Below, piece by piece: positions 2 to 31,975 of a DNA stretch of 32,000 bases. Where the stretch lies: NCBI RefSeq assembly GCF_009557235.1, contig NZ_CP045650.1, forward strand, positions 210,001 through 242,000. The letters run 5' to 3'. A program made the translations under genes and the position numbers. A model generated the notes under the pieces. It was not told the origin of the DNA and searched no databases. It saw only the letters and a program-made list of their open reading frames with translations. The DNA is from Acinetobacter wanghuae (GTDB taxonomy: Bacteria; Pseudomonadota; Gammaproteobacteria; Pseudomonadales; Moraxellaceae). The first letter of the stretch is position 1. The number at the start of each line of letters is the position of its first letter.

Positions 2-1711
2 CTTGAGTCAATCAAGACCCAGTATAAAACTGCCGTACCAAAGCAGTTTGAGCAAAACTTTAATAATTACTTCGAACAGCATTCTTATCAAAGTGCATCG
101 AAGTATTTGCCGATCGCGCAGAAATCAGAACAACAACAGGCAATTGTCCAACTTAAGGACATGAAAGAAAATTATTTAAAGAACCCGAATGCTTCCGAAC
201 AAGAAGTTTGGAATGGTTTAGCTACATATGGACAATCTAAGAGCCTACCTTTGGCCCATGTTAAAGATGCTTATAACGAATATAAAAATAATCGCTCCAG
301 CAATGATGTGGCTGCATTCTATTTAGGAAATAAGTCGGACAATGAAAAGCTTACTGAACTAACGACTCCTGAAGCTGTAATAGCAAAACATCCCAATTTA
401 ACCCAAGAACAGGCTGTCTACTGGAGTGGTCGTGCACTCACCCAAATGGATCAGAATAAACGTGCGGCTGCCTTGCAGCAAAAGCAGTTAGAAGATGATG
501 CCAAGGATGCTGTTAATGAGATGAAGGCAGACATTGAGACATTACTAATTCCAAGTGAAGCGGTGCTTAAATCCCGTTTAGCGCGTGTTAAAGGGACTGA
601 AAAAGAATCTGAATTTGTCCAGTACAGTGGTGCCTTGGTTGAAGTCCAGCAGTTCATGAAGCTAGGGGCAGATGAACGTGAAGCCTATCTTAGTAAAAGA
701 CGCTCTGAGGCTCAAAATACGGCGCAAGACAATGCTAAAGATGTGAGTTGGAGGTTAAATCTTCTCTCTAAAACGCATGATAATATGCTTGGTTATGAGA
801 AAAATAACTCAGCTTTGGCTTACTCAATTAAGACCGGCCAAGATCTGACGGTAGTACCCACCAATGCAATTTTAAGTGGTAGCCCTGAAGCGATTGCAGC
901 TCTATCCAAAAATATTAAATCTATTCACGCCAACAATATATTAGATGGGACTGTAGGGTCCTTAAATCCTTTCTCTACCCAACAACAATCTGAATTAAAG
1001 CAGTTCTGGGAAAAAGCTAAACCTGGTGACAAGTTAGGTTTACTAACCAGTATTTATAAATCTAGTGCAGGCAATGCCAATGCATCCAGAGACATGATTA
1101 ATAGCATTGCAGGCGAAAGCGGTTCATATCGTTTATCTGCATCACTGAATAACCGTGGCCTGCAAGATATTGCCGGTCAGATCGTTACCGGCCAGGATCT
1201 GATTGAGAAGGGATTAGTCAAAGTAGATGAGAGCGGCTTAACAAAACATACAGAAACGTATTTAGCCGGCATTACTTCACCAGGTAAACCTGACTTTCAA
1301 ATCTATCTGGATTCAATCAAAGCCAACTATGCTTATTTGGTTCAAAAATCTGAAAAGGTCACTGATACAAAGGGCAATATTTTAAATAAAACCATTGATG
1401 AAGAGCTATTTAATAGAGCTGCTAAGAATGTCACAGGCGGTAAATTTACCTCAGGTGGATTCTTTGGGAGTAAGTCGGTAGTACTGCGGCCTCATACTGT
1501 TGGTGAGAAATCATTTCGTGAGCAGCTGGAGACGTTTAACTCTCGTAATGCACGTAACTATGGTGGATCTGATAAAGACTTCTTCTTGGATTTACCTTTG
1601 GAACAAGATCCAAAAAATCCATATGTCTATTACTTCAAGAATGGTACCAAGTACATCATGGATGCCACCGATAAGAAGCGTCAAACACGCTTAACTTTTA
1701 AAGTGAGATGA
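2..1711 (+). CDS. Large phage structural or ejection protein, 5'-truncated by the window edge
   Basis: The reading frame is open from position 2 with no stop upstream of the listed TTG at 107 and no SD there. It ends 8 nt before the next gene. No domain recognised. Confidence 0.7.
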   Translation, partial: LESIKTQYKTAVPKQFEQNFNNYFEQHSYQSASKYLPIAQKSEQQQAIVQLKDMKENYLKNPNASEQEVWNGLATYGQSKSLPLAHVKDAYNEYKNNRSSNDVAAFYLGNKSDNEKLTELTTPEAVIAKHPNLTQEQAVYWSGRALTQMDQNKRAAALQQKQLEDDAKDAVNEMKADIETLLIPSEAVLKSRLARVKGTEKESEFVQYSGALVEVQQFMKLGADEREAYLSKRRSEAQNTAQDNAKDVSWRLNLLSKTHDNMLGYEKNNSALAYSIKTGQDLTVVPTNAILSGSPEAIAALSKNIKSIHANNILDGTVGSLNPFSTQQQSELKQFWEKAKPGDKLGLLTSIYKSSAGNANASRDMINSIAGESGSYRLSASLNNRGLQDIAGQIVTGQDLIEKGLVKVDESGLTKHTETYLAGITSPGKPDFQIYLDSIKANYAYLVQKSEKVTDTKGNILNKTIDEELFNRAAKNVTGGKFTSGGFFGSKSVVLRPHTVGEKSFREQLETFNSRNARNYGGSDKDFFLDLPLEQDPKNPYVYYFKNGTKYIMDATDKKRQTRLTFKVR

Positions 1712-1718
1712 GGTAGAG

Positions 1719-4349
1719 ATGGATTTTTTAGCAGATGATGAATTAACGTTAAATCAGGACGACCCTCGCTTTAAACCTAAAAGTGAGCGCGGTGGACTTG
1801 CTGACGGCGTATTAGGTACTGTTTCCGGTGTTGCTATGGGTACCATTGAGGCAGCTACCGCCCCAGATGCCTTAGTACGTGGTGACAAGAAAGCAGCAGC
1901 TCTAAGAGCGCAAAACCTCGAGATTTTTAAGCCTGATGATTTAGGTGGCATAGGTGAGTTTACCTATGGCCTGACCAAAGACTTTACACGTATTGGCTGG
2001 AACGCCGTCACTACACTAGGTACAGGCGGTGTACCTGGTTTGGCATTGAATTCTGGATTATTCGGGTACCAGACCTTTGAAGCAGAGAAATCAGACTTAC
2101 TTAACAAAGGGGCGGATATAAAAACGGCTCGCACCGGTGGGGCTATTAAAGGGGTTACAGATGCTCTGGGCTTTGCTATTCCTACCCATGGTGTTGCTAA
2201 ATCTGTAGTGGCTGATGCTGTGGCTACTACTGCGCTGGCTACTGGAGCTGGCGTAGCTGGTGATTATCTTGAAGGTTCATTTCTTGAAAACAATGAAAAT
2301 AAGAAAGTCGCTCAATACGGTGAAGCATTAAAGGAAAATGCATTGAGTCCGTCCACATTGGCAGCAAACGGCGGGATGGCCTTGCTACTCAACTTGTGGG
2401 CGAACAAAGGGCGTTTACGGCCAGAGCAGATCAAAGACCATAGTAATGTAGATACCATGAATGATGCGGCTCATATTCAGGCCAACATCGAGCATGCAGA
2501 GGGTACAAATCCATTTAGCCCAACTAATGCTAAAGAAGCCAATTCACACTTTGATGCATTGGATAGTGCAATGGAGAGCGCACTGAATGATGAGCTGGTC
2601 AGCTTAAAAGCACCAGTGAGCGGAACACCTAAAGCAGTCGTAACCAGTACACCAGTGGTACCAATAACAGGTACACCGAAAGCTATCGTAAGACCAGACG
2701 CTATCAATACTGATGAACATAAAGCACCAGTAATAGCGGAGCTTTTGACTAACCCTGTATTTGATAAAAAACCTTGGACAAAAACGATTGTTCAGGAAGC
2801 CTCTAAACGAGGTATTAATCCAGTGGATGCCTTGATCATTTCCCATCTGGAAACTGGTGGTACCTTCAGTACTTCAATCCAGCCAAAAGACAGAAATGGG
2901 GAGTTACTTTCATCGGCCACCGGCTTATTTCAGACTTTGGATAGCACCTTTGCCCGTATGGGAGGTAAGAACAAGTTTGATGGTAATGATCAAATTAAAG
3001 CGGGCTTGAACTACTACGAGCACAATGCCAAGGTTTTCCGCAGCCACTTTAATCGAGATCCGAATGGCCTAGAACTTTACTATCTGCATTTCTTTGGTGA
3101 GGGTGGTGGACCAGTCTTTTTGAAAGCCAAAGATAATGAGCTTTTTGTTGATGTGGCCACACGCTGGAGTAAAGGAAACCAGAAGAAGACTGCAAGACAG
3201 ATTGCAGAAGGCATTACCTCAAGCCACCAATTCAATGGTATGACTGTTGGGCAGGTAAAGGCCAAATACGAAAAGCGCTGGAACGATATAGCTAAACTTT
3301 ATGGTGATGTCGGTTCACAAAATGCAGCACATCCTACCGAAGTCCGAGGGAGCGAATCAGAGTTCCCACAGTTTGAGTCTGATATAACTGCACCACCTGC
3401 TTACAAGTCCCAATCTGATGCTGAAGTTGAAGCAATGCCTTTTGTACTCAGTGCAGATGAGCATAGTGTGAAGTCACTCCAGGAAGAGTTTGAAGCCCTA
3501 TCTTCTCCATTGACTAAAGAGGATCTGGAATACCTCAAGGCTACGGCGCATTATCAGTATTCTGAAGGTGGTGCTTATCGAACGCCGTATGTTGAACCTC
3601 AGGTCGATTTATCTGGCCCTGGTAATAGTGCCAGTCGTAATTTGGATACATTGGACTCTGATCTTTACCAGCTTGAGCCAGAACAACAACGCGTTATTCT
3701 TCCAGATCCAGAATCGAACACTTTAGATATCAATACCAGAACATCAGGTTCAAATATTCCGCAAAACTCAATTGTTGATGGTGTAGACAATTGGACCCCG
3801 ACCAGATCGCAAAACTACCTTAAACGAGAGCGGTCAATGGATGATGGGGGGATTATTCAAGAACTACACAATAGTACTTCTAATACGACCTTCCAGCGCC
3901 AGATTAATCAGGATGGCACCATTAGCCCGGTAAAGGCTACACGTAATGGAAATGATCTATTTGCCCATCCTGCTAATGGTAAAGCCGATAGTCCTGAATT
4001 AACTGCAGTACAGCATAAAGCTACCCAGGCATTAGAACGGGAGTTCTGGAAACCTAGCAAGTCCAAGGTTGATGGTGCACCGGACTTAACCAAGTCTAGC
4101 AAAGGTGAATACGGTGCATTCACTGACACGGCAGACGGTAGGGAAGCGGTTTCAATTCTGGAAGCAGATCCCGATATGGAAGTGACTTTTACGCGCCTGG
4201 ATGAAAACGGGAATGAAGAAATTGTGACGATGTCATCCCGAGATCTATTGGACTATGTCAAAGAGCAAGAAGAAATCGCAAAAGATGAAATTCAGGCAGT
4301 GAAAGCATTGGCAAGCTGCGCATTAAGATTTGGGAGTGAAGCAGCATGA
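1719..4349 (+). CDS. Internal virion or ejection protein with a central lytic transglycosylase (SLT) domain
   Basis: GAGG RBS before the ATG. Residues about 355-445 (nt about 2781-3053) read ...ISHLETGG...ATGLFQ...YY..., the SLT pattern, with the candidate catalytic Glu at 2850-2852. Confidence 0.8.
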   Translation: MDFLADDELTLNQDDPRFKPKSERGGLADGVLGTVSGVAMGTIEAATAPDALVRGDKKAAALRAQNLEIFKPDDLGGIGEFTYGLTKDFTRIGWNAVTTLGTGGVPGLALNSGLFGYQTFEAEKSDLLNKGADIKTARTGGAIKGVTDALGFAIPTHGVAKSVVADAVATTALATGAGVAGDYLEGSFLENNENKKVAQYGEALKENALSPSTLAANGGMALLLNLWANKGRLRPEQIKDHSNVDTMNDAAHIQANIEHAEGTNPFSPTNAKEANSHFDALDSAMESALNDELVSLKAPVSGTPKAVVTSTPVVPITGTPKAIVRPDAINTDEHKAPVIAELLTNPVFDKKPWTKTIVQEASKRGINPVDALIISHLETGGTFSTSIQPKDRNGELLSSATGLFQTLDSTFARMGGKNKFDGNDQIKAGLNYYEHNAKVFRSHFNRDPNGLELYYLHFFGEGGGPVFLKAKDNELFVDVATRWSKGNQKKTARQIAEGITSSHQFNGMTVGQVKAKYEKRWNDIAKLYGDVGSQNAAHPTEVRGSESEFPQFESDITAPPAYKSQSDAEVEAMPFVLSADEHSVKSLQEEFEALSSPLTKEDLEYLKATAHYQYSEGGAYRTPYVEPQVDLSGPGNSASRNLDTLDSDLYQLEPEQQRVILPDPESNTLDINTRTSGSNIPQNSIVDGVDNWTPTRSQNYLKRERSMDDGGIIQELHNSTSNTTFQRQINQDGTISPVKATRNGNDLFAHPANGKADSPELTAVQHKATQALEREFWKPSKSKVDGAPDLTKSSKGEYGAFTDTADGREAVSILEADPDMEVTFTRLDENGNEEIVTMSSRDLLDYVKEQEEIAKDEIQAVKALASCALRFGSEAA

Positions 4350-6874
4350 GAGCTGAATGTAGAGAACAAGTTGCAAAGGCATTAGGTAAAAGAAAATTAA
4401 GTGCAGCTGATAGTAATCGTATTTCATCACTGTATATCCGGGCACAAAATACTCTAGCCAGAACAGATCCTGATTGGATGTTTAAAAGTCCTGCTGAACG
4501 TGCTGAAGCGATTGCGCAGAAAACTGCTACGGATCTCGCCGTCCAGATCGCTAAGAACAATCAGAACATTGCCCGGGATGCGATTCTCAAAGCCCAACTG
4601 CAGAACGAAATCTATAACCATCCTAAATTAAATCCGGTCCAAGCTTTAATGCGGAAGATTGCATACTTCTCGGATCAGAGTGGTATCCAGTCCATAGAGA
4701 AACAATCTCAAGCATTGCATAGCCGCTGGATGTCATTGGTTGCAGATGTGTTTACCAAGACACAAGAGCGCTTTGGTATGTCAGTGAACAAGGCAATGAC
4801 TGACGACATTATCCGGGTCATGTTTGGTGGCAAATCTGATAATCCAGAAATTACTGCGATGGCCAAGGAAGTAAGTGCAGCCCTGGAGGAAATACGTTTA
4901 GCCTTCAACCGGGCTGGTGGGAATATCAAGAAGCTCGATAACTTTGGCTTTATGACATCGCATGACCAAAAGAAGGTAGCTTTAACGGATCAAGCGGAAT
5001 GGGTAAATGATACTTTAAAAGGAGTAGATAGAAACCAGTACGTTAAAGAGACTGGTGAGTTGATGGATGAGCTGGAGCTTAAATCCATGCTCGAGGAGAT
5101 TTATAAAACGATTTCAACCAACGGCGCCAACAAAGACTTACTGATACTGAATAAACAGGCCAAAGCAGGTACATCACCTGTAGGTGGTCGTTCAAAGATG
5201 GCAAATCGCCACCAGGAATCACGTGCTTTGCATTTCAAGGATGGTGATGCATGGCTGGCATATCAAAAGAAATATGGAACTTATGATGAAGCAGGGTTTC
5301 ATGAGATTCTGAAAAACCATACTCACCGCATGAGTACAGAAGTGGCCATGATGCAGAACCTTGGGTCCAATCCTCGTCATACCTTTGAGTCGTTATTGGA
5401 TGAAGCCAAGATCAAACTGAAAGCAGATCCACAGAATGGTATGAAACATGGTGAGATTGATAAGCAGGCGCACAGGGCCATGTCGATGTATAACACCCTA
5501 GATGCTAATACCAGAGCGATTGATTCAACCTTAGGTAACGTTATGGGTGGCCTACGTGCCTTAATGGTTGCATCTAAATTGGGTGGTACCACGCTGACGA
5601 CCTTTGGCGACCATGCCAGCATGAAGAAAGTGGCTAATATGTTGGGCCTGTCTTATACCAAATCGATCCTCCCTGAATACATGAAGCAATTGAAACAGGG
5701 TGCCACACGTGATGAAGCATTGCGGTTTGGCCTTGGCATTAACGAAATGGCCGGTTCAATGACTCGTTTTGGTGATGCTGATATTGTCAGCAGTGCTACC
5801 AAGTCAGGCCGCTTTAATGCACGTATGCAGGCTTTTGCTGCAACGACTATGAAACTATCAGGACTGAACGCCGTCACTGCAGGAGCGAAACGAGCGCTTA
5901 ATCTGGTGCATATGAATAAGCTTGCTGAAATGACCCGTAAAACGGATTGGAAGGATCTTGGTGCAGATGATCTTAAGATCTTACAGGGGAATGGTATTAC
6001 CGAGCGTGACTGGCAGTTATGGCAGCAGCTGGAGCCAAGTAAACGTGAAGATGGGACGGCGGTACTGACTCAGAATGATTTCTTTAATGCACCAGATGAT
6101 GTGATTAAGCAGTTCTTGCCACTGGACAAGCAGGACAATGCTAATGCACTGGCTGACTTCCGGTATAAAGCTGCTATGAAATACCAGACTCATCTATTTA
6201 ACGAGGAGTCAGTCGCTATTATTGAAGCAGGTGTACGTGAACGTAGCATCATTAACTTAGGCGAAGCTGGAACCATCCAAGGGGAATTAGGCCGAACCTT
6301 ATTCCAGTTCAAAGGCTTCCCATTGGCTTATATGTTCCGTATTGGTCATCGTGCCTTTGCCCAGGGAGATATTAAGAGTCGGGTGACGTTCCTAGCTTCG
6401 CTACTGGCTTATCAAACTTTAGCAGGTGCATTGATCGTTCAGACTCAGAACTTGGCCAATGGTAAGAATCCAGAGCCGGTATTTACGATTGATTTCTTTG
6501 GTAAGTCACTTCTTAAAGGTGGCGGGCTTTCCTTCCTGGGGGACATCATGTCTGCACTTTCAGATCCAACTGGTCGAAGTGCATCAGACTTTATCAGTGG
6601 CCCATTATTAGGCCAAAGCATGAAGCTGGGTATGCTGCTAACTGGTATGGGTAACAACATCATCGAGGGGAAAGAATCTACCCGGATGATGGAAGTGGCC
6701 AATACCCTGAAGAGTAATATTCCATTGCAGAATCTTTGGTACAGTAAGCTGGTCGTAGATCGAATGCTGTATTCCAAAATGCAGAATATGATTGATCCTG
6801 ATTATTTACCGAGAACACAGCAGCGCCTGGAGAACTTAGGTAATAGTTACTGGTGGGATTTATCAGAAGAATAA
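4346..6874 (+). CDS. Large phage protein (842 aa), putative internal virion or DNA-ejection protein with a hydrophobic C-terminal part
   Basis: ATGA start/stop overlap with the upstream gene and a GGGAG RBS. Followed by an intrinsic terminator. No domain recognised. Confidence 0.7.
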   Translation: MRAECREQVAKALGKRKLSAADSNRISSLYIRAQNTLARTDPDWMFKSPAERAEAIAQKTATDLAVQIAKNNQNIARDAILKAQLQNEIYNHPKLNPVQALMRKIAYFSDQSGIQSIEKQSQALHSRWMSLVADVFTKTQERFGMSVNKAMTDDIIRVMFGGKSDNPEITAMAKEVSAALEEIRLAFNRAGGNIKKLDNFGFMTSHDQKKVALTDQAEWVNDTLKGVDRNQYVKETGELMDELELKSMLEEIYKTISTNGANKDLLILNKQAKAGTSPVGGRSKMANRHQESRALHFKDGDAWLAYQKKYGTYDEAGFHEILKNHTHRMSTEVAMMQNLGSNPRHTFESLLDEAKIKLKADPQNGMKHGEIDKQAHRAMSMYNTLDANTRAIDSTLGNVMGGLRALMVASKLGGTTLTTFGDHASMKKVANMLGLSYTKSILPEYMKQLKQGATRDEALRFGLGINEMAGSMTRFGDADIVSSATKSGRFNARMQAFAATTMKLSGLNAVTAGAKRALNLVHMNKLAEMTRKTDWKDLGADDLKILQGNGITERDWQLWQQLEPSKREDGTAVLTQNDFFNAPDDVIKQFLPLDKQDNANALADFRYKAAMKYQTHLFNEESVAIIEAGVRERSIINLGEAGTIQGELGRTLFQFKGFPLAYMFRIGHRAFAQGDIKSRVTFLASLLAYQTLAGALIVQTQNLANGKNPEPVFTIDFFGKSLLKGGGLSFLGDIMSALSDPTGRSASDFISGPLLGQSMKLGMLLTGMGNNIIEGKESTRMMEVANTLKSNIPLQNLWYSKLVVDRMLYSKMQNMIDPDYLPRTQQRLENLGNSYWWDLSEE

Positions 6875-6879
6875 AATTA

Positions 6880-6899
6880 GGAGCTTCGGCTCCTTTTTT
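6880..6899 (+). terminator. Rho-independent terminator of the late operon
   Basis: GGAGC-TTCG-GCTCC followed by TTTTTT, starting 6 nt after the stop codon at 6872-6874. Confidence 0.8.
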
Positions 6900-6986
6900 A
6901 ATTTTTAGATTACTATGTTGTATTGATATTTATAAATAGCCAAAATTCAACATCAAATGATGTGATGAGACAATTAAGGGGGAAAT

Positions 6987-7451
6987 ATGATTGGTAGAGT
7001 TTTACCCATATTACTTTTAGGGTATTCAACAGTAGCTTTAGCAGAAAATGGATTTGATCGCTCGTTAATCAATGCCAAGATAATCAATGAGAAATATGAA
7101 ATTATTGATATTGATAGCTTTAACGATCTTACTCGTCAAATCACCAATGAAGTAGTTTCGACGTTACCTAGAAAAGTTGATGCTGATACAGAGCTATTAA
7201 CCATGGTGTTAAGCAGACCTTTAATTTCTCAGACTTATGCGCTAAGAGATATTGAAACTAAAAAGGATTTATCGGAAAAAATAGATTTGGAAAAGTTTAG
7301 TCAATTAATTAGAAATTACGCTTGTTCCTCAGCTATTGGCACTTCTCAAGTTTATAGGGTAAATGGCACTCATTTTTCCTTTAAAGTGATTAATAGTGAT
7401 TTTATGGAACTTTACAGCTATACATTCCCACTAAGAACATGTGAAGAATGA
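6987..7451 (+). CDS. Secreted hypothetical protein (cargo or moron)
   Basis: AAGGGGGA RBS. N-terminal signal peptide MIGRVLPILLLGYSTVALA/EN. Two Cys. AT-rich. Confidence 0.65.
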   Translation: MIGRVLPILLLGYSTVALAENGFDRSLINAKIINEKYEIIDIDSFNDLTRQITNEVVSTLPRKVDADTELLTMVLSRPLISQTYALRDIETKKDLSEKIDLEKFSQLIRNYACSSAIGTSQVYRVNGTHFSFKVINSDFMELYSYTFPLRTCEE

Positions 7452-7526
7452 ATGTGAAATACAATTCAAAGTTGCAGTTATTGCTGAATAGCTTGATTAG
7501 TATGACTACACTTTGAGGAATAATTG

Positions 7527-7748
7527 ATGACCTTATATATCTCAACACCTGAGTTATTAAAGCGCTATGGAATTACTAAAGGTACTTTGATCAGCTGGCG
7601 AAATAAAAAGAACTTTCCTGAACCAGTGATTAAAGCGCATGGACGTTCCAGTAGTCGTTACGGGATCAAAGCTGTCGATACCTGGGAAAGAGAAAGTGGC
7701 TTGCTTGACTCACTTGAAATACAGCCTCTGATAACATCGCATACATAA
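7527..7748 (+). CDS. AlpA/excisionase-family HTH DNA-binding protein
   Basis: GAGGA RBS 7 nt before the ATG at 7527 (the track starts at the TTG at 7524). The pattern ...YGITKGTLISWRNKKNFPEPV...V..W matches the AlpA-type HTH. Confidence 0.65.
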   Translation: MTLYISTPELLKRYGITKGTLISWRNKKNFPEPVIKAHGRSSSRYGIKAVDTWERESGLLDSLEIQPLITSHT

Positions 7749-7775
7749 TCTTAGTAGAAAAAGGAATTTCACATC

Positions 7776-8207
7776 ATGAAGAAGATAATAGCTTTCTCTC
7801 TAATGAGTCTTATAAGCTCAGTGGCTTTGGCTACCCCAATTACACTTCAGCATTCTAAGACCAGCTATGTGAACTCAGGGATCTGTTCCGCCGTGGTGGA
7901 TGTGACTATCCATGATTTTCTTGGGACCTATGACAAACTGTATTTAGACCTGGTGGCAAAGGACAAATCCGGCAGAGTGCAAGGGACTTCTGAGAATGTA
8001 ATAACCTACGGCGATATACAAAACCTTCAAGGTAAAGCATTTGGAAATATTTTTCTTGAATCGGAAACGATGTGCGGAGCGGATCGCACCTGGACAGTTC
8101 AGGTTAAGCGCGCCGTCTTGGTCGTAGATGGTAAAAGAGAAGATCTACTGAAGGCCAAGAAAGTTCATATTGATGATTTTCAGCCTATGAGAATAGTAGC
8201 TAAATAA
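7776..8207 (+). CDS. Secreted hypothetical protein (cargo or moron)
   Basis: AAGGAA RBS. Signal peptide MKKIIAFSLMSLISSVALA/TP with no lipobox Cys. Two Cys in the mature part. Confidence 0.65.
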   Translation: MKKIIAFSLMSLISSVALATPITLQHSKTSYVNSGICSAVVDVTIHDFLGTYDKLYLDLVAKDKSGRVQGTSENVITYGDIQNLQGKAFGNIFLESETMCGADRTWTVQVKRAVLVVDGKREDLLKAKKVHIDDFQPMRIVAK

Positions 8208-8278
8208 CAGACTGATTAATAATTCTTGAATACATAGATTAAATTTTACTCATGTCTACCGTTACACAGCCGGAAACT

Positions 8279-8344
8279 GTGCGTTTCTGACATTTTTACC
8301 GTCCGTTTCTGACATTTTTACTGTGCGTTTCATACTTTTTCTAA
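8279..8344 (+). repeat. Three tandem 22-bp direct repeats
   Basis: GTGCGTTTCTGACATTTTTACC / GTCCGTTTCTGACATTTTTACT / GTGCGTTTCATACTTTTTCTAA at 8279, 8301 and 8323. Confidence 0.9.
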
Positions 8345-8403
8345 AAGCGTTACTGAGCAAAATCTAAAATATTTTGCATGAAGCAGTAGTGCTAGATTTG
8401 TTT

Positions 8404-8514
8404 TACCTTGATGTACCTTGATGAAATGGGATTTCCTTAAAATAGAGGTAAATCTTACTGTATATAGCTTTGAAGCTGTTTTGATGGTCTCTCTACTGGT
8501 GGCTTATCAAGGTA
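8404..8514 (+). repeat. TACCTTGATG x2 in tandem, plus one inverted copy
   Basis: Direct copies at 8404-8413 and 8414-8423. ATCAAGGTA, the reverse complement of TACCTTGAT, lies at 8506-8514. Confidence 0.85.
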
Positions 8515-8548
8515 ATTCAATTAAACGCCGTAGAGAATAATTTAAGGC

Positions 8549-8594
8549 CGTTTTGCTGTACGTACTGATACGGATTTTGCTAGACGTACCTAGA
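8549..8594 (+). repeat. Two imperfect tandem units of about 23 bp (..TTTTGCT..ACGTAC..)
   Basis: CGTTTTGCTGTACGTACTGATA followed by CGGATTTTGCTAGACGTACCTAGA. The second unit also contains CTAGAC-GTAC-CTAGAC. Confidence 0.7.
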
Positions 8595-8602
8595 CAGAAT
8601 AG

Positions 8603-8631
8603 GGGGTGTAATCACCCCATTTATCCTTTTT
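8603..8631 (+). terminator. Possible + strand terminator (GC hairpin with a T-rich tail)
   Basis: GGGGTG-TAAT-CACCCC followed by ATTTATCCTTTTT. It is the first such structure downstream of the gene ending at 8207. Confidence 0.4.
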
Positions 8632-8681
8632 GCGAAACAAACCCTATGAAAGAGGTGTTTTTGCCTAATTAGACTGCACCG

Positions 8682-8700
8682 ATCTAAAGCAATCTAAAGC
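8682..8700 (+). repeat. ATCTAAAGC x2 direct repeat
   Basis: ATCTAAAGC-A-ATCTAAAGC. Confidence 0.85.
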
Positions 8701-8873
8701 TGTTTATTCTATTGTCATGATTTCCGTGATAGTTGAATCTGCATGGTTATCTTGACCATTCAGCTACTGGGTTGGTGTTGGCCAGGTGGTATTCCTTTTC
8801 ACTACACTTAAAGTGTGGTTAGCGTTCCAAGAGTTTTCGGATCGGGACCACTTCCCCCACTGGGGGATATGAG

Positions 8874-9263
8874 CAAAATTGCGTTGGTTAATGAACTACG
8901 AAACTTTCGTAGTAGGACGGCGCAAAATTGCGTCCACCTACACGCGCGCGTAGTTGTTCCGAAACCTGAGTTTTCCGTAATAGACCAGCGAAAAATTGCG
9001 TTGGTTAATGAACTACGAAACTTTCGTAGTAGGACGGCGCAAAATTGCGTCCACCTACACGCGCGCGTAGTTGTTCCGAAACCTGAGTTTTCCGTAATAG
9101 ACCAGCGAAAAATTGCGTTGGTTAATGAACTACGAAACTTTCGTAGTAGGACGGCGCAAAATTGCGTCCACCTACACGCGCGCGTAGTTGTTCCGAAACC
9201 TGAGTTTTCCGTAATAGACCAGCGAAAAATTGCGTTGGTTAATGAGCTACGAAACTTTCGTAC
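8874..9263. repeat. Perfect 117-bp tandem array, about 3.3 copies, with a further orphan motif at 9340-9356
   Basis: GCGTTGG recurs at 8881, 8998, 9115 and 9232, a period of exactly 117. Each unit carries the 17-nt palindrome CTACGAAACTTTCGTAG, the 10-nt palindrome ACGCGCGCGT and two copies of AAAATTGCGT. Confidence 0.95.
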
Positions 9264-9280
9264 AGTCACCAGTATGGGTA

Positions 9281-9520
9281 TGGTCAAAATGACCACTCCA
9301 TAAAAGCGATGCTCAAAAGTGAGCAACGGTATTCACTGAGCGAAAAATTGCGTTGAGTGGGTGTGTCCAAATATGGACAGACCTCAAAATTGAGTTTTGC
9401 ACGTGACTATCAGGTACTCACAAAGATAACCCCAACTTTGGGGGGCATCTCTTAACTTTCACCACTGATTAGAGTTTAAAACAATGGTTATCCTCAAATT
9501 TGAGGGCATCCCTTAACATC
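9281..9520. other. Cluster of six short inverted repeats or hairpins with A/T-rich centres, including two related modules of about 30 nt
   Basis: TGGTCA-AAA-TGACCA (9281-9295), GCTCA-AAAG-TGAGC (9311-9324), TGTCCA-AATA-TGGACA (9364-9379), CTCAA-AA-TTGAG (9383-9394), CCCCAA-CT-TTGGGG (9430-9443) and CCTCAAATTTGAGG (9492-9505). The last two are each followed by GCATC(T/C)CTTAAC. Confidence 0.85.
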
Positions 9521-9651
9521 ACTGTTTTCAATAGTTTGGGCTGTATTTTTAAGGTTTTGAGCACCACCCCTTATTACTGGATCTTTTGCTAGTTTCACAG
9601 TCTAACTCTCGATCCAACTAATCAATGATCCGATCACATAGGTCGCCATTT

Positions 9652-10026
9652 TCAAAGAAGATCCAACTGTCCAATCTTATATTGATAAGTTCCCCATTCA
9701 CCTTCACGAGGAACGCGTTCAACGCCAGTTTCAGATTGCCATAGTTGAATTAATGCCTCGCCATTTTCATAATTTGGAATTCCACCACGTGACCATTCGG
9801 AGACAGTTGAAGCGCCACTGACAGGTAAAACAAAGGAGATCTTTTGATGTGTCCATCCGATCTTACTTAAATCCAAGATCATACGATTGAAGTCAGGACG
9901 TTTATAGCTACGGCGTTTGGCGAAAAACTCTTTTACCTTTTTTTGGGTCTTTAAGTTTTTAAATCTTTCAGCTAGTGATTTTCCAAAAATTTCTGTATCT
10001 ACAGAGCCATCATCGGTGAACATCAT
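9652..10026 (-). CDS. Hypothetical phage protein (124 aa), last gene of the early operon
   Basis: Its ATG overlaps the dnaB-like stop (ATGATG/TGA at 10021-10026). No domain recognised. Confidence 0.7.
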   Translation of the reverse strand: MMFTDDGSVDTEIFGKSLAERFKNLKTQKKVKEFFAKRRSYKRPDFNRMILDLSKIGWTHQKISFVLPVSGASTVSEWSRGGIPNYENGEALIQLWQSETGVERVPREGEWGTYQYKIGQLDLL

Positions 10027-11390
10027 ATTGTAATCCCCTGAATTTGATTAAGTGCATCATGATCTAGGTTGGTGAATTGGCAGTACTTCAGTTGAGCATG
10101 CATGTAGGCTGTACCAGCTTCGCCGTGGCGATTCTTTCCAACGATGGCTTCAGCAATGCCTCTGTATTGAGACTCTTTGTTATAGACCTCATCACGGTAT
10201 AAAAAAATAATTTGGTCAGCATCTTGCTCAATCGCGCCTGATTCTCGTAGATCTGACATCATTGGACGTTTGTTAGGACGTTTTTCTAGCTCTCGGTTAA
10301 GCTGAGATAAAAGCACTATGACGCAATCAAACTCCTTAGCCATGGCTTTAAGTTCACCAGTGAAATAGGCAATCTTTAAGTCTTCCCGGGCGAACTGCTT
10401 TGTTGTCTTCATGATCTGCAGGTAGTCGACCAACACGACACCGATAAAACCATACTGATGTTTTACTTTACGAATAGATTCTCGGATATTTGAAATAGAT
10501 GGGCGTGAGGTGTCATTGATCTGCATTGGTACTTTTTGAAGCATTACTACGGCGTTTGTATACGCTGTAAATTCCTCTTTGGGTAGGAGGTGAGGGGAAT
10601 TGCGTACGATTCCAATATCTGCAGGTGCAATCGCGCAACAGAGGCGCATAGCGATTTGCTCCTTCGGCATTTCTCCCGACATGATTAGACTGGGTTTGTT
10701 CTGTACAACTGCTACATTATTCGCAATGAGCTGGAGCATAGTAGTTTTACCCATTGCTGGTCGCGCAGCCACTACCATTAGACAACCAGGTTCAACATCA
10801 CCTAACTTTTTATCCAAGTCATAGATACCAGTTTGAATCCCTTTAATCATAGTTTCGCCAGCAAGTGCGGCTTCAATCTTACGGTGCATCTCAAGAAATG
10901 TGTTGGAGGCGGCATCATGAATATGAAAAAGACTTGTACTGCCTTGCTCAGTACTTATATCTGTAAAAGCTGTCTGAGCATTCAAAACCAAATCACCACG
11001 GCTTGTGGTCAAGCTACGTGCGTTCTGAATTACTTTCAGTGCTTCTGCTTCAACCTTTCGACAGGTTGTGAGGTCCTTTAACTTTTCTGTATAAGGGATC
11101 AAGTTGTAAAAGCTAGAAGGTGCATCACCCAAAATCTGCATGATGTAGCGCTCACCACCAGCCGCGTCGGAGTAGTTGTGCATTTCTAGCCATTGGTTGA
11201 CCAATACAGCATCGTATGGTGAATTCTTTGCATCTAAATCAACAATTGCCTGAAAAATTAATTTATGACGTGTAGCATGAAAATCTTCTTCAGAAATCAG
11301 ATTCTCAACTTGAGCATATGAGTTTGCAACGGTCATTAATGCTGCAAGAACAGCTTGCTCAATTTGTAAGTTATGGATCGTTGTATTCAT
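10023..11390 (-). CDS. dnaB: Replicative DNA helicase, DnaB family
   Basis: Typical DnaB N-terminus NLQIEQAVLAALM, Walker A ARPAMGKTT, and C-terminal RecA-like motifs (SGAIEQDAD, KNRHG). The start was moved to the ATG at 11390, which makes a TAATG overlap with the upstream gene. Confidence 0.9.
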   Translation of the reverse strand: MNTTIHNLQIEQAVLAALMTVANSYAQVENLISEEDFHATRHKLIFQAIVDLDAKNSPYDAVLVNQWLEMHNYSDAAGGERYIMQILGDAPSSFYNLIPYTEKLKDLTTCRKVEAEALKVIQNARSLTTSRGDLVLNAQTAFTDISTEQGSTSLFHIHDAASNTFLEMHRKIEAALAGETMIKGIQTGIYDLDKKLGDVEPGCLMVVAARPAMGKTTMLQLIANNVAVVQNKPSLIMSGEMPKEQIAMRLCCAIAPADIGIVRNSPHLLPKEEFTAYTNAVVMLQKVPMQINDTSRPSISNIRESIRKVKHQYGFIGVVLVDYLQIMKTTKQFAREDLKIAYFTGELKAMAKEFDCVIVLLSQLNRELEKRPNKRPMMSDLRESGAIEQDADQIIFLYRDEVYNKESQYRGIAEAIVGKNRHGEAGTAYMHAQLKYCQFTNLDHDALNQIQGITI

Positions 11391-12208
11391 TAGGGACTTC
11401 CCAAAAGGCTTTTTGGTTTTGTCGGTAAATTGATAAATGGCTGAGTACAAATAGTTTGCTGTTCAATCGGTGCTTGAATGCCATATTCAGGATTCTGCTT
11501 TTTATAACGATCAAACTTATCTATGATCCAAGCCGTGAACTTATGCAGTTTTTTATTTTCAGATAAACCGCTGTTATCGAAATAAGAGTTGAATGCACTT
11601 AATTCAAATTCGAAACTAGGCAAACCTAAGATCATCTCTATATCACTTTCATGACCTGTCATTTTTATCTTAGTTACTAACTGATCTAAACTAGGAATCC
11701 AGTCGTGTTCTTGAGAGAGATTCATTGATAGATTCATTGATAGATTCTGCGACCCGTTTTTGGGTTCATTCAAAGTACCGTTTTTGGGTTGATTACTATC
11801 CAAAATTGGGTTCATTTGCTGCATAGAATCATCCCGCTTTAGGGTTTCTTTAACAGTACCGTTTTTGGGTTTATTATCATCTTTAATAGACCCATTTTTG
11901 GGTTTATTTAAATCGTACCAATTTTGGGTTTGTTCTCTTGAATGGACACCAGCTAACGCCAAGACCCTAACTCTTCCCGTAGGACCCATTCTCTTACCCG
12001 TATCGATTACAAGACCTAGAGAAATCAGCTCGTTCACTACTTTTTTTACTGTCTTCAAATTTAAAACAGTATCAGCTGCTAAGCGTTCCATGCTCGGCCA
12101 TGCTGTATGTTCCTCACCAGCACGATCTGACAAAGAAAGTAGAACAAGACGTTGTGAAGAAGTATTCACTGGAGCAGTCCAAGCCCAGCGCGTTGCATCA
12201 ATGCTCAT
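11390..12208 (-). CDS. Replication initiator, lambda-O-like, with an N-terminal winged HTH and an iteron-encoded linker
   Basis: AGGAGG RBS. The N-terminus RWAW...QRLVLLSLSDRAG...WPSMERLA...VKKVVNELISLGL is the HTH_36/O-like pattern. The central (K/Q)PKNG(T/S) peptide repeats are encoded by DNA iterons. It sits directly upstream of dnaB. Confidence 0.75.
   Translation of the reverse strand: MSIDATRWAWTAPVNTSSQRLVLLSLSDRAGEEHTAWPSMERLAADTVLNLKTVKKVVNELISLGLVIDTGKRMGPTGRVRVLALAGVHSREQTQNWYDLNKPKNGSIKDDNKPKNGTVKETLKRDDSMQQMNPILDSNQPKNGTLNEPKNGSQNLSMNLSMNLSQEHDWIPSLDQLVTKIKMTGHESDIEMILGLPSFEFELSAFNSYFDNSGLSENKKLHKFTAWIIDKFDRYKKQNPEYGIQAPIEQQTICTQPFINLPTKPKSLLGSP
11719..11747. repeat. 12-bp tandem repeat GATTCATTGATA x2.4
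   Basis: Copies at 11719-11730 and 11731-11742, with a partial copy at 11743-11747. It encodes NLSMNLSMNLS in the O-like protein and flanks the iterons. Confidence 0.85.
11754..11940. repeat. Six iterons CC(G/A)(T/A)TTTTGGGTT, the putative phage replication origin inside the O-like gene
   Basis: Copies start at 11754, 11778, 11800, 11869, 11892 and 11928. The extended consensus is GTACCGTTTTTGGGTT(Y)ATT. The layout parallels lambda ori, which lies within gene O. Confidence 0.7.
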
Positions 12209-12362: not shown

Positions 12363-12897
12363 TTTTAGTAGCCTCCCATTCCGCTTCGTACTTCTCGCAT
12401 TCAATATTGAAGGTATTGCTATGGCTTTCTGCCAAATATTCAGCAATATGGATTAAACGCTCAAGTGTTGAAAAGACTGAAAAATGGATCTTGGTTTGAG
12501 TGGCTTCTTTGACTTCCCTCATCTCACTATTTAATTGAAAGCATAGTGTGTCTAACCAAGTAGCTCCCTCACGAGCAAGGGCATAAGCATCTAGCAAATC
12601 ACCCGCGTCATACTCATCAGATGCATCCTTATCATTCTTTAATCCGTTATAACGATCAATTTGGGTGTCAGCCAATTGAACTGCAAGGATAGTTAAGTTT
12701 TCCATTTCAGTAAAAACGGTGCTATCAGCACGGTATTCTTCAGCATGAGCTTTAACAAATGATATTGATTTTATTATTTGATTAAAGAGTGTACGTAGCT
12801 GTACTGATGATTCTGATGCAAGGGTATAAGCACTAATTATGTCTTTAGTACTATAAAAAGGAATCAATTGTTCTGAAGATTTAACTTTAGCGTTCAT
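12355..12897 (-). CDS. Hypothetical phage protein (180 aa), acidic and predicted helical
   Basis: AGGAG RBS 10 nt upstream. ATGA overlap with the upstream ORF. No domain recognised. Confidence 0.7.
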   Translation of the reverse strand: MNAKVKSSEQLIPFYSTKDIISAYTLASESSVQLRTLFNQIIKSISFVKAHAEEYRADSTVFTEMENLTILAVQLADTQIDRYNGLKNDKDASDEYDAGDLLDAYALAREGATWLDTLCFQLNSEMREVKEATQTKIHFSVFSTLERLIHIAEYLAESHSNTFNIECEKYEAEWEATKNG

Positions 12898-13208
12898 GAT
12901 GAATGCGCTCCTATGTATTTTGGAGCTTCGTCAATCACGACCAAATGATTTGGGTGACGAAGCTGAAAAGGGTTGGTCGGCAGGTAACATAGGGAACCTG
13001 CACACATCATAGATGTGTCCCTCTCCAGCTCCGCCATAACATGCGAACGCATAGAGATTTTACGCACAAAAAAAGCCCGAAGAGCGGACTGTGCGCCTAT
13101 GTTACTTTTGCAGCCGACCAAAGCTGATTCGATGATTTTGCACCGAACAAATTCAATATAGCCGAATAATATTGATTTGAGAAGACATAACCAAAAAATA
13201 AATTTCAT
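12894..13208 (-). CDS. Hypothetical Cys-rich small protein (104 aa) with a hydrophobic N-terminus. The DNA is unusually structured.
   Basis: The ORF exactly bridges its neighbours with ATGA overlaps at both ends (13205-13208 and 12894-12897). Its composition is odd, and it contains nested inverted repeats and a terminator-like hairpin. Confidence 0.5.
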   Translation of the reverse strand: MKFIFWLCLLKSILFGYIEFVRCKIIESALVGCKSNIGAQSALRAFFVRKISMRSHVMAELERDTSMMCAGSLCYLPTNPFQLRHPNHLVVIDEAPKYIGAHSS

Positions 13209-16958: not shown

Positions 16959-17049
16959 TGGCGGTGAAAGAGGGATTCGAACCCTCGAAACGCTATAAAC
17001 GTTTACACACTTTCCAGGCGTGCTCCTTCAGCCACTCGGACACTTCACC
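16959..17049 (-). tRNA. tRNA-Ser (anticodon GGA), the integration target
   Basis: The reverse complement GGTGAAGTGTCCGAGTGGCTGAAGGAGCACGCCTGGAAAGTGTG...GAGGGTTCGAATCCCTCTTTCACCGCCA folds as a class II tRNA with a long variable arm, anticodon loop CUGGAAA and an encoded CCA. Confidence 0.9.
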
Positions 17050-31648: not shown

Positions 31649-31724
31649 GGCGTGATAGCTCAGTAGGTAGAGCAACGGATTGAAAATCCGTGTGTCCCCA
31701 GTTCGACCCTGGGTCTCGCCACCA
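31649..31724 (+). tRNA. tRNA-Phe (anticodon GAA), copy 1
   Basis: GGCGTGATAGCTCAGTAGGTAGAGCAACGGATTGAAAATCCGT...GGTCTCGCCACCA. Cloverleaf with anticodon loop UUGAAAA, a TPsiC GTTCGA motif and an encoded CCA. There is one U-U mismatch in the acceptor stem. Confidence 0.9.
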
Positions 31725-31899: not shown

Positions 31900-31975
31900 G
31901 GCGTGATAGCTCAGTAGGTAGAGCAACGGATTGAAAATCCGTGTGTCCCCAGTTCGACCCTGGGTCTCGCCACCA
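31900..31975 (+). tRNA. tRNA-Phe (anticodon GAA), copy 2
   Basis: Its 76 nt are identical to copy 1. Confidence 0.9.

Follow-up and report, generated by a model that had tools for sequence, protein, structure and literature searches.

Shared modules of Acinetobacter mobile elements in a prophage island of Acinetobacter wanghuae, with a putative fold-back RNA around a small open reading frame

Described systems and the island under study

Several described systems share traits with a gene-free island found in a prophage of Acinetobacter wanghuae, at positions 8208-9651 of the 32,000-nt stretch of DNA that was analysed (hereafter the window, to which all coordinates refer unless a locus is named). 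In hok-type toxin mRNAs, control is exerted by a fold-back of the transcript which hides or exposes the start. The immI antisense system of phages P1 and P7 is made of a C4 RNA with a1/b1 and a2/b2 target repeats, the BIME/REP sequences are mosaic palindromic elements of enterobacteria and the crr of P4 is a cis replication region with two 120-bp direct repeats carrying iterons of the alpha protein. Phage PhiTE is known for the expansion of pseudo-ToxI repeats, type III antitoxin arrays being composed of units of 34-43 nt. The general features of type I toxin-antitoxin (TA) loci such as hok/sok, ldr/rdl, ibs/sib and zorO/orzO are found in Fozo et al. 2010 (PMC2887945), hokW-sokW being an example located on a prophage (PMC8621323), and the biology of C4 RNAs is summarised in PMC5320573.

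Compared with its relatives, the island is a mosaic of modules common to unrelated Acinetobacter mobile elements. The best overall explanation, to which an even chance is given here, is an accessory region of shuffled modules and not a single cis-acting site; such a region would offer the phage a variable slot for morons or other cargo at the point where its late and early-left operons converge. The left part is a hok-like small-gene module, new but of a familiar type, and the hairpin region shared with other elements is undescribed.

The gap between genes is real, with 1,444 bp separating the stop of the + strand gene 7776-8207 from that of the - strand gene 9652-10026, and the repeats and palindromes claimed in an earlier note on this DNA are present at nearly the same positions. 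The repeat families, which that note had taken as unrelated, are connected, the doublets being built on a common grammar, xxxxxAC-GTA-xxxxxAC with a 10-bp period, which the relatives use with different words. Exact 7-mer doublets with a period of 9-12 bp were counted 47 times against about 2.8 expected, a density of 4.07 per kb, whereas elsewhere in the window it is 0.55 per kb. As for the statement that no credible open reading frame (ORF) exists in the island, it holds above 60 aa, where the sole two ORFs run through a 117-bp tandem array as artefacts of the repeat period and gave only chance, sub-threshold Pfam matches; it does not hold for a conserved ORF of 39 codons with a coding signature at 8421-8540.

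The left module and its small open reading frame

Related sequences were gathered by pattern scans and protein look-ups, which yielded 32 loci (L001-L032), and 33 modules in 13 loci were recovered with nhmmer. As defined by the alignment of homologues, the left module measures about 190 nt, lies within ~8343-8631 on the + strand and consists of a doublet, a conserved scaffold and an inverted copy of the doublet word about 95 nt downstream. In the window the doublet is formed by two copies of TACCTTGATG (8404-8423, + strand). The 5' arm, TTACCTTGAT, occupies 8403-8412 of the + strand and is followed by a tandem second copy at 8414-8423, with a 10-bp period, which contains an ATG at 8421. The 3' arm, ATCAAGGTAA, is found at 8506-8515 on the same strand as the inverted copy of the 5' arm, and overlaps the Y-Q-G-N codons of the ORF.

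In an alignment of 22 modules, the helix between columns 30-39 and 135-144, in which the first doublet copy with its CTT flank faces the inverted copy with AAG, is paired at 88.7%, and 8 of its 10 pairs change on both sides. The covariation score of this helix was reached by none of 500 shuffles, and slid controls were paired at 36-51%. Seven distinct word pairs were observed, for example GTTTGAC/GTCAAAC and GTGATAC/GTATCAC. The outermost pair (columns 30 and 144) is U.A in nine cases, U.G in six and C.G in two, and the U.G variants imply that the helix works on the + strand only. When the second doublet copy is taken as the alternative partner, 77.6% of the positions are paired. Downstream of the helix an intrinsic terminator, GGGGTG-TAAT-CACCCC followed by ATTTATCCTTTTT, is located at 8603-8631 (+), the stem of which is kept in relatives via G.U pairs functional on the + strand only. 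It is likely, from these sequence comparisons, that the left module forms an RNA fold-back, and the structured RNA which the earlier note had mentioned as its second choice gains support for this left part, by the covarying helix with its U.G pairs and by the + strand terminator.

The 39-codon ORF (8421-8540, + strand) has its start codon in the second arm copy and encodes the peptide MKWDFLKIEVNLTVYSFEAVLMVSLLVAYQGNSIKRRRE, composed of one hydrophobic helix, VNLTVYSFEAVLMVSLLVAY, followed by a basic tail, QGNSIKRRRE. It is intact in all family-A copies of the module and conserved in 11 distinct DNA copies, and in the variants P0010 and P0014 the same core is reached from the ATG of the first doublet copy. 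Three close homologues were found in protein databases and a profile search gave 12 matches at E <= 0.001, with conservative substitutions. The coding signature is moderate: in the hydrophobic core of the 11 distinct copies, differences by codon position number 215, 203 and 354, pN/pS is 0.55 compared with 0.79 and 1.10 in the other frames, and stops are met in the other frames in 10 of the 11 sequences. Translation of this ORF is somewhat more probable than not.

Upstream of the module, three copies of a 22-bp direct repeat, ACTGTGCGTTTCTGACATTTTT, were detected by TRF and by the repeat finder at 8276-8341 (+). The number of copies is variable, the 95%-identical locus L012 having 6.5 of them (L012 3266-3410). 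Ahead of the small gene the + strand has a single sigma70-like site, formed by the last of these units (-35 CTGACA at 8309, -10 CATACT ending at 8336). One or more hairpins, CACAGCCGGAAACTGTG, with a T-rich tail form a weak terminator-like site at 8265-8289 (+), just past the last gene of the late strand. A gene for a 74-aa helix-turn-helix (HTH), excisionase-like protein and a gene for a 143-aa secreted protein (7524-8207) were also noted upstream of the 22-bp repeats.

According to the mechanism proposed here, 8343-8631 would be a + strand unit with a weak promoter in the 22-bp repeats, the 39-codon gene and the intrinsic terminator. Its mRNA would fold back by pairing of the 10-nt 5' arm with the inverted copy at the end of the ORF; since there is a single 3' arm, we infer that it could pair with either copy 1 or copy 2, whereby the start codon would be hidden or exposed. 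The peptide may act on the membrane, with a possible function in addiction, exclusion or defence.

The resemblance to type I TA loci resides in a hydrophobic peptide of the membrane type, shorter than 60 aa and with a charged C-terminus, in a long-range 5'-3' fold-back of the mRNA involving the start region (here the covarying 8403-8412 / 8506-8515 helix with the ATG-bearing second arm, an arrangement suited to start sequestration), in an overlapping upstream reading frame reminiscent of mok, in divergent tandem copies within gene-free stretches and in the location on a prophage. On the other hand, no antisense RNA gene was identified and no known toxin family was matched, a 5' arm duplicated in tandem is not known from these loci, promoters are not evident and toxicity of the left module is a prediction. 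A type I toxin-like function of the left module, which is drawn from this analogy, is therefore proposed only tentatively.

With the immI system of P1/P7 the module has in common a short word present as two direct copies and one complementary copy, all three changing together between variants, which is the pattern expected of a specificity determinant that acts by base pairing; a true C4 RNA is moreover found elsewhere in this phage (12950-13041). In contrast to immI, the modules fail the Rfam C4 model, the direct copies are adjacent and 10 nt apart, and the complementary copy lies in the coding region. The 'group 1 / C4-like' small RNAs of A. baumannii from Weiss et al. (PMC5320573) and Kroeger et al. 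(PMC6182133) were likewise considered and set aside, as the modules fail the C4 model and the supplements hold no matching sequence. A more far-reaching reading, rather improbable at present, would see the ~190-nt modules as word-programmable RNA cassettes in which a 7-nt word, present twice in tandem and once inverted, is swapped between copies. These could be self-recognising units, e.g. a privately controlled toxin mRNA or an immunity or exclusion determinant, and the adjoining hairpin region could be a new large noncoding RNA (ncRNA) or a common cis signal linking satellites to helper phages.

A number of observations weigh against an RNA-controlled small gene within a transcribed region. 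The strict 10-bp period of the doublets is typical of DNA-binding sites and not of RNA. No Rfam family, C4, GOLLD and ROOL included, was recognised at the gathering threshold or at E <= 10, the stretch 8100-9750 giving only chance-level matches with E of 1 or more. In five loci, sigma70-like sites number 10 compared with about 29 expected, and in L008, L011 and L028 a strong terminator stands upstream of the modules. When the ORF is taken in full its coding signal is weak (pN/pS 0.58; codon-position differences 183, 192 and 202), the ORF copy of the window has no Shine-Dalgarno sequence, relatives having a G-run 7-10 nt upstream of an ATG, and the start codon is often missing in other module subfamilies. 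The peptide matched no family of Pfam or NCBIfam, the only hit being a sub-threshold one to DUF5964 (E = 0.007). No antisense RNA partner was recognised, the sole candidate being a weak - strand promoter-like site at 8718-8691. Lastly, in the hairpins further to the right, local mismatches are without strand bias, those of G.U type (11) equalling those of A.C type (11). Two further searches ended likewise: conserved sigma70 promoters were sought inside the modules and none was found, a -10-like TAAAAT being only 14 nt from the doublet, and the homologous regions of 16 related loci gave no Rfam family at the gathering threshold.

Shared modules, hairpin blocks and the 117-bp array

The closest relative, L012 from A. 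lwoffii, is 95% identical over 5021-8564 of the window and has extra left-type modules. In tblastn searches the proteins of the window recur beside modules only in L012, the integrase alone having distant matches (30-34%) in L009 and L010. Modules were found at the ends of prophages with differing structural genes (L008, L011, and L028 with a tape-measure protein), upstream of an integrase (L010 and L016) and in P4-like tmRNA islands, where tmRNA, int, int-alpA RNA, C4 RNA and a DUF3987 primase are accompanied by the hairpin region at the far end (L019, 5274-13357, and L024). They were also found in RepM plasmid-like elements of about 10 kb with capsid, protease, portal, HNH and TerL (L002-L006, L014 and L027), which look like capsid-forming, satellite-like Acinetobacter plasmids. 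Each of these seven has RepM (Rep_3) with four 22-bp iterons, and the A. schindleri plasmid pHZE33-1-1, of 132 kb, contains one of them. In L022 (807-1781) the shared region stands between two genes of host type, for an FGGY kinase and PAP2; its right junction is common to the L028 prophage (7080-7300) and bears two arm-site-like copies of GGGAGGTTAAAT; the shared region of L022 is probably a prophage remnant.

The orientation of the modules varies, from co-oriented in the window, L008 and L011 to divergent in L010, L016 and L026, and their order is likewise variable between loci. Cargo genes are found at module borders in L010 and L012: an AAA-ATPase gene cluster after block A replaces the array and block B in L012 (4670-6200), and a 242-aa ORF occupies the position of the island in L010. 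In L030 a module was noted beside a gene with a SIR2_2 domain, and together with the AAA-ATPase site of L012 this looks like a hotspot for defence-type cargo. Searches by blastn gave no match in 50,697 phage records and partial matches, restricted to Acinetobacter, in a plasmid collection; a full-text literature search for the module sequences returned no relevant paper.

Right of the left module, block A (8733-8880, +) is a conserved hairpin module, 89-93% identical in L008, L011, L012, L020 and L028, and block B (9247-9517, +) is a series of hairpin modules with variable stems and A-rich loops between the flanks GATAT ... GCATCyCTTAAC. These flanks are asymmetric and directional, with one orientation throughout. 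The first 81 nt of block B (9247-9327) match L005, a plasmid-like element with RepM and capsid genes, at 100% identity. On both strands 8800-9530 folds far more stably than its shuffles, with z = -7.4 (+) and -6.8 (-), and in the related regions there are 38 hairpins with stems of 9 or more positions vs 8.3 in shuffles, a 4.6-fold excess. In a tally of contexts, the hairpin block is co-directional with the upstream gene in 11 of 12, and both blocks would probably be transcribed together with upstream genes. Three candidate identities were rejected for this region: an ORF in block A (8743-8811) as a second peptide gene, having no coding signature; a CsrA/RsmA sponge, because GGA counts are at or below expectation; and integron attC-like core sites, to whose consensus GCATCyCTTAAC comes near without fitting, in a comparison made by eye only.

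Between the two blocks lies the tandem array (8875-9262, +), in which TRF detected 3.3 copies, 99% identical, of a 117-bp unit with 4-5 hairpins and the GC palindrome ACGCGCGCGT. L016 and L017 have the unit only once, and the array is absent in L011, L012, L008 and L028; in L011 block A is joined straight to sequence matching window 9301-9457, and L007 and L010 retain an array-less junction in inverted orientation. Both junctions of the array are situated within hairpins of one family, the left one reading GAGCAAAA|TTGCGTTGG and the right one lying in the CTACGAAACTTTCGTA hairpin. Because the unit is single-copy or absent in relatives and the junctions are inside similar hairpins, the array is most probably a recent triplication in place; recombination between similar hairpins would have triplicated one stretch of the hairpin region. 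Conservation of the array was not borne out. Exact-pattern scans for the unit in viral and metagenome collections, made with a pattern one base off the single-copy versions, found none. Folding of the 117-nt unit gave z = -2.4 (+) compared with -1.3 (-), and that of the single copy of L016 -2.3 compared with -0.3.

The array recalls the crr of P4: in both cases repeats of roughly 120 bp stand in tandem close to where a replication operon ends, and the element also has int, alpA and an RNA of the C4 type. The array differs from crr in that the iteron of this phage, CCGTTTTTGGGTT, is absent from the island and in that the array is not conserved in relatives. For the same reasons, and with a 22-bp repeat of 3-6.5 copies, an iteron origin or P4-crr-like region was rejected. 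As with the pseudo-ToxI repeats of PhiTE, a noncoding segment of a phage which occurs once in relatives is amplified in tandem in one genome; in contrast to those repeats, the unit of the array is 117 nt long, no endoribonuclease gene is adjacent and there is no evidence of selection for amplification. A ToxI-like array of a type III antitoxin was rejected as well, as the unit is not of 34-43 nt and, as far as the island extends, neither strand has a gene after it.

The DNA of the window is of Acinetobacter origin, and the element is integrated at a tRNA-Ser gene (16959-17049). Since its + strand at 107-6874 encodes head and internal-virion proteins of podovirus type, as found with PHROGs, Pfam and PADLOC on the flanking proteins, it is a true prophage, the second end of which lies outside the window, beyond position 1. 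The - strand genes are ordered as integrase, int-alpA RNA, AlpA, Rha, C4 antisense RNA, HTH_36 O-like initiator, DnaB and a 124-aa gene. Six copies of CCGTTTTTGGGTT (11754-11930, + coordinates) are located inside the - strand HTH_36 gene (11390-12208) and none in the island; the origin, of lambda type, is therefore in the O-like gene, where the earlier note had placed it. The C4 antisense RNA (12950-13041, -; RF01695, 58 bits) sits inside a mechanical ORF, 12894-13208, which is for this reason probably not a gene, and repeats upstream of this RNA (TTGTTCGGT.CAAAA) may be a1/b1-type targets. Terminase genes are far upstream of the window. The genes to the left of the island encode internal virion proteins or are small and accessory, which speaks indirectly against a cos or pac packaging site, as does the triplication that such a site would have undergone. 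The att core of tRNA-Ser, a copy of which would have indicated two tandem elements, was sought inside the island without success, a tRNA/tmRNA scan of the island gave nothing, and among the flanking proteins searched with Pfam, PADLOC and PHROGs no candidate that would bind the island was seen. In the host part of the window, two tRNA-Phe (GAA) genes (31649-31724 and 31900-31975) stand 251 bp apart.

The remaining features of the island are two 24-nt units with 10-bp-period doublets, GCTGTAC-GTA-CTGATAC and GCTAGAC-GTA-CCTAGAC (8551-8598, +), which have no inverted partner, and a doublet of ATCTAAAGC (two copies, 8682-8700). The latter is overlapped by the - strand promoter-like site already mentioned (-35 ATGACA at 8718, -10 TAGATT ending at 8691), from which a transcript convergent to the small gene might arise. 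The repeat and palindrome finder located GC hairpins at 8603-8618 and 8853-8867 as well as a hairpin series at 9248-9505, and a unique spacer (9518-9651) ends at the stop of the - strand 124-aa gene. Towards their right end, the shared regions of L008 (1833-1847), L015, L016, L018, L019, L022 and L024 have a conserved palindromic block rich in GC, ACGCGCGCG..GAGGGA; its opposite strand reads as an intrinsic terminator, and the 117-bp unit of the window holds it inverted at 8942-8951 (+117, +234). A second doublet grammar, a 6-7-nt word, TTTT and the same word (GTGAGGTTTTGTGAGGT, ACTAAGTTTTACTAAGT), was noted at 1080-1380 of L016 and 800-1100 of L022, with about 10 different words following one another within 300 bp.

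Competing explanations and significance

The earlier note had favoured a DNA-level role, and had observed that terminator-like hairpins bracket a promoter-poor region. Both observations are valid: terminator-like sites in the island number 6 compared with 2.3 expected, including 8603-8618 (+) and 9325-9310 (-), and sigma70-like sites 3, all weak, compared with 5.1. A cis site for packaging or genome termini, a centromere-like site, a titration array or a site of single-strand priming, common to phages and satellites because they are handled by the same machinery, would also agree with a doublet period equal to one helical turn, with the 81-nt stretch identical between a phage and a capsid-encoding plasmid-like element, with the GC-rich palindromic block kept near the right end of most related regions and with the position of the hairpin region, which comes after the replication module both in satellites and in the window and, in L008, L010, L016 and L028, borders on att arms. 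For the hairpin part a DNA-level role is possible because the local mismatches show no strand bias. For the array and the left part it finds little support, given a strain-specific triplication, iterons confined to the O-like gene, distant terminase genes and modules in elements with unrelated replication, packaging and integration proteins. The carriers differ in initiators (Rep_3, DUF3987, HTH_36 with DnaB) and in structural genes and their integrases are only distantly related; more than 10 doublet words would demand as many binding specificities, a cos site would suffer from being cut at three places spaced by 117 bp, module order and orientation vary, and the covariation of the long-range helix involves U.G pairs on one strand. 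A DNA-level site is consequently regarded as improbable. More improbable by far is a decayed protein-coding gene, even though relatives have genes at this place. The earlier note had held that an intact gene there would make the island a pseudogene; the ATPase cluster of L012 and the ORF of L010 are unrelated insertions between conserved noncoding modules, which contradicts such a reading, as do the period artefacts in the array and the ORF of block A without coding signature.

Two other explanations concern the hairpin part and are each given a low probability, somewhat above that of the DNA site. Blocks A and B with the array could form a long structured or hairpin-array RNA serving as decoy or sponge for an RNA-binding factor of the host or of a helper, in which amplification of the 117-nt unit would have been selected for dosage as in the pseudo-ToxI expansion of PhiTE. 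The strong folding of 8800-9530, the better folding of the unit on the + strand in the window and in L016, the directional flanks in a single orientation, the agreement in direction with upstream genes and the variable stems between conserved loops and flanks are in favour of such an RNA; the hairpins, on the other hand, have no G.U excess, no promoter, no GGA enrichment and no Rfam match, the array exists in one genome only and orthologous copies vary too little for covariation tests. The hairpin part could equally be selfish or structural filler of the BIME/REP kind, a palindromic mosaic at 3' ends between convergent operons with roles as terminator, insulator, mRNA stabiliser or recombination substrate for cargo exchange. 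Its mosaic make-up, the varying copy numbers of the 22-bp repeat and of the 117-bp unit (3.3 vs 1 in relatives), terminator-like sites enriched 3-5 fold on both strands in five loci, cargo genes at module borders and array junctions within similar hairpins are consistent with filler. Like BIME/REP, it is a mosaic of palindromic units with linkers, placed where genes converge by their 3' ends, in variable copy number and without promoters; unlike them, its stems differ per unit, its modules reside on mobile elements and are not scattered in the chromosome, and no RAYT transposase was seen. Blocks of 80-300 nt at 90-100% identity across unrelated elements speak against filler, as they suggest constraint or very recent exchange, and so do the consistent orientation relative to the upstream gene, the lack of U tracts in most hairpins and the absence of copies in the host part of the window (17-32 kb).

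The accessory region of shuffled modules thus remains the preferred explanation, and it removes a false lead, the conspicuous 117-bp array being a recent duplication and not a conserved device. Annotation pipelines leave such stretches of 1-2 kb blank in Acinetobacter prophages and satellites. As seen here, the blank stretches hold a recurrent gene for a small, predicted membrane peptide in a covarying RNA fold, and a hairpin region which has passed between phages, satellites and plasmids in this genus of priority pathogens. The small gene occupies a variable slot where relatives carry defence-like cargo, namely the AAA ATPase cluster in L012 and the SIR2-domain gene in L030, and, should it encode a type I toxin, it would represent a family apparently undescribed in Acinetobacter.

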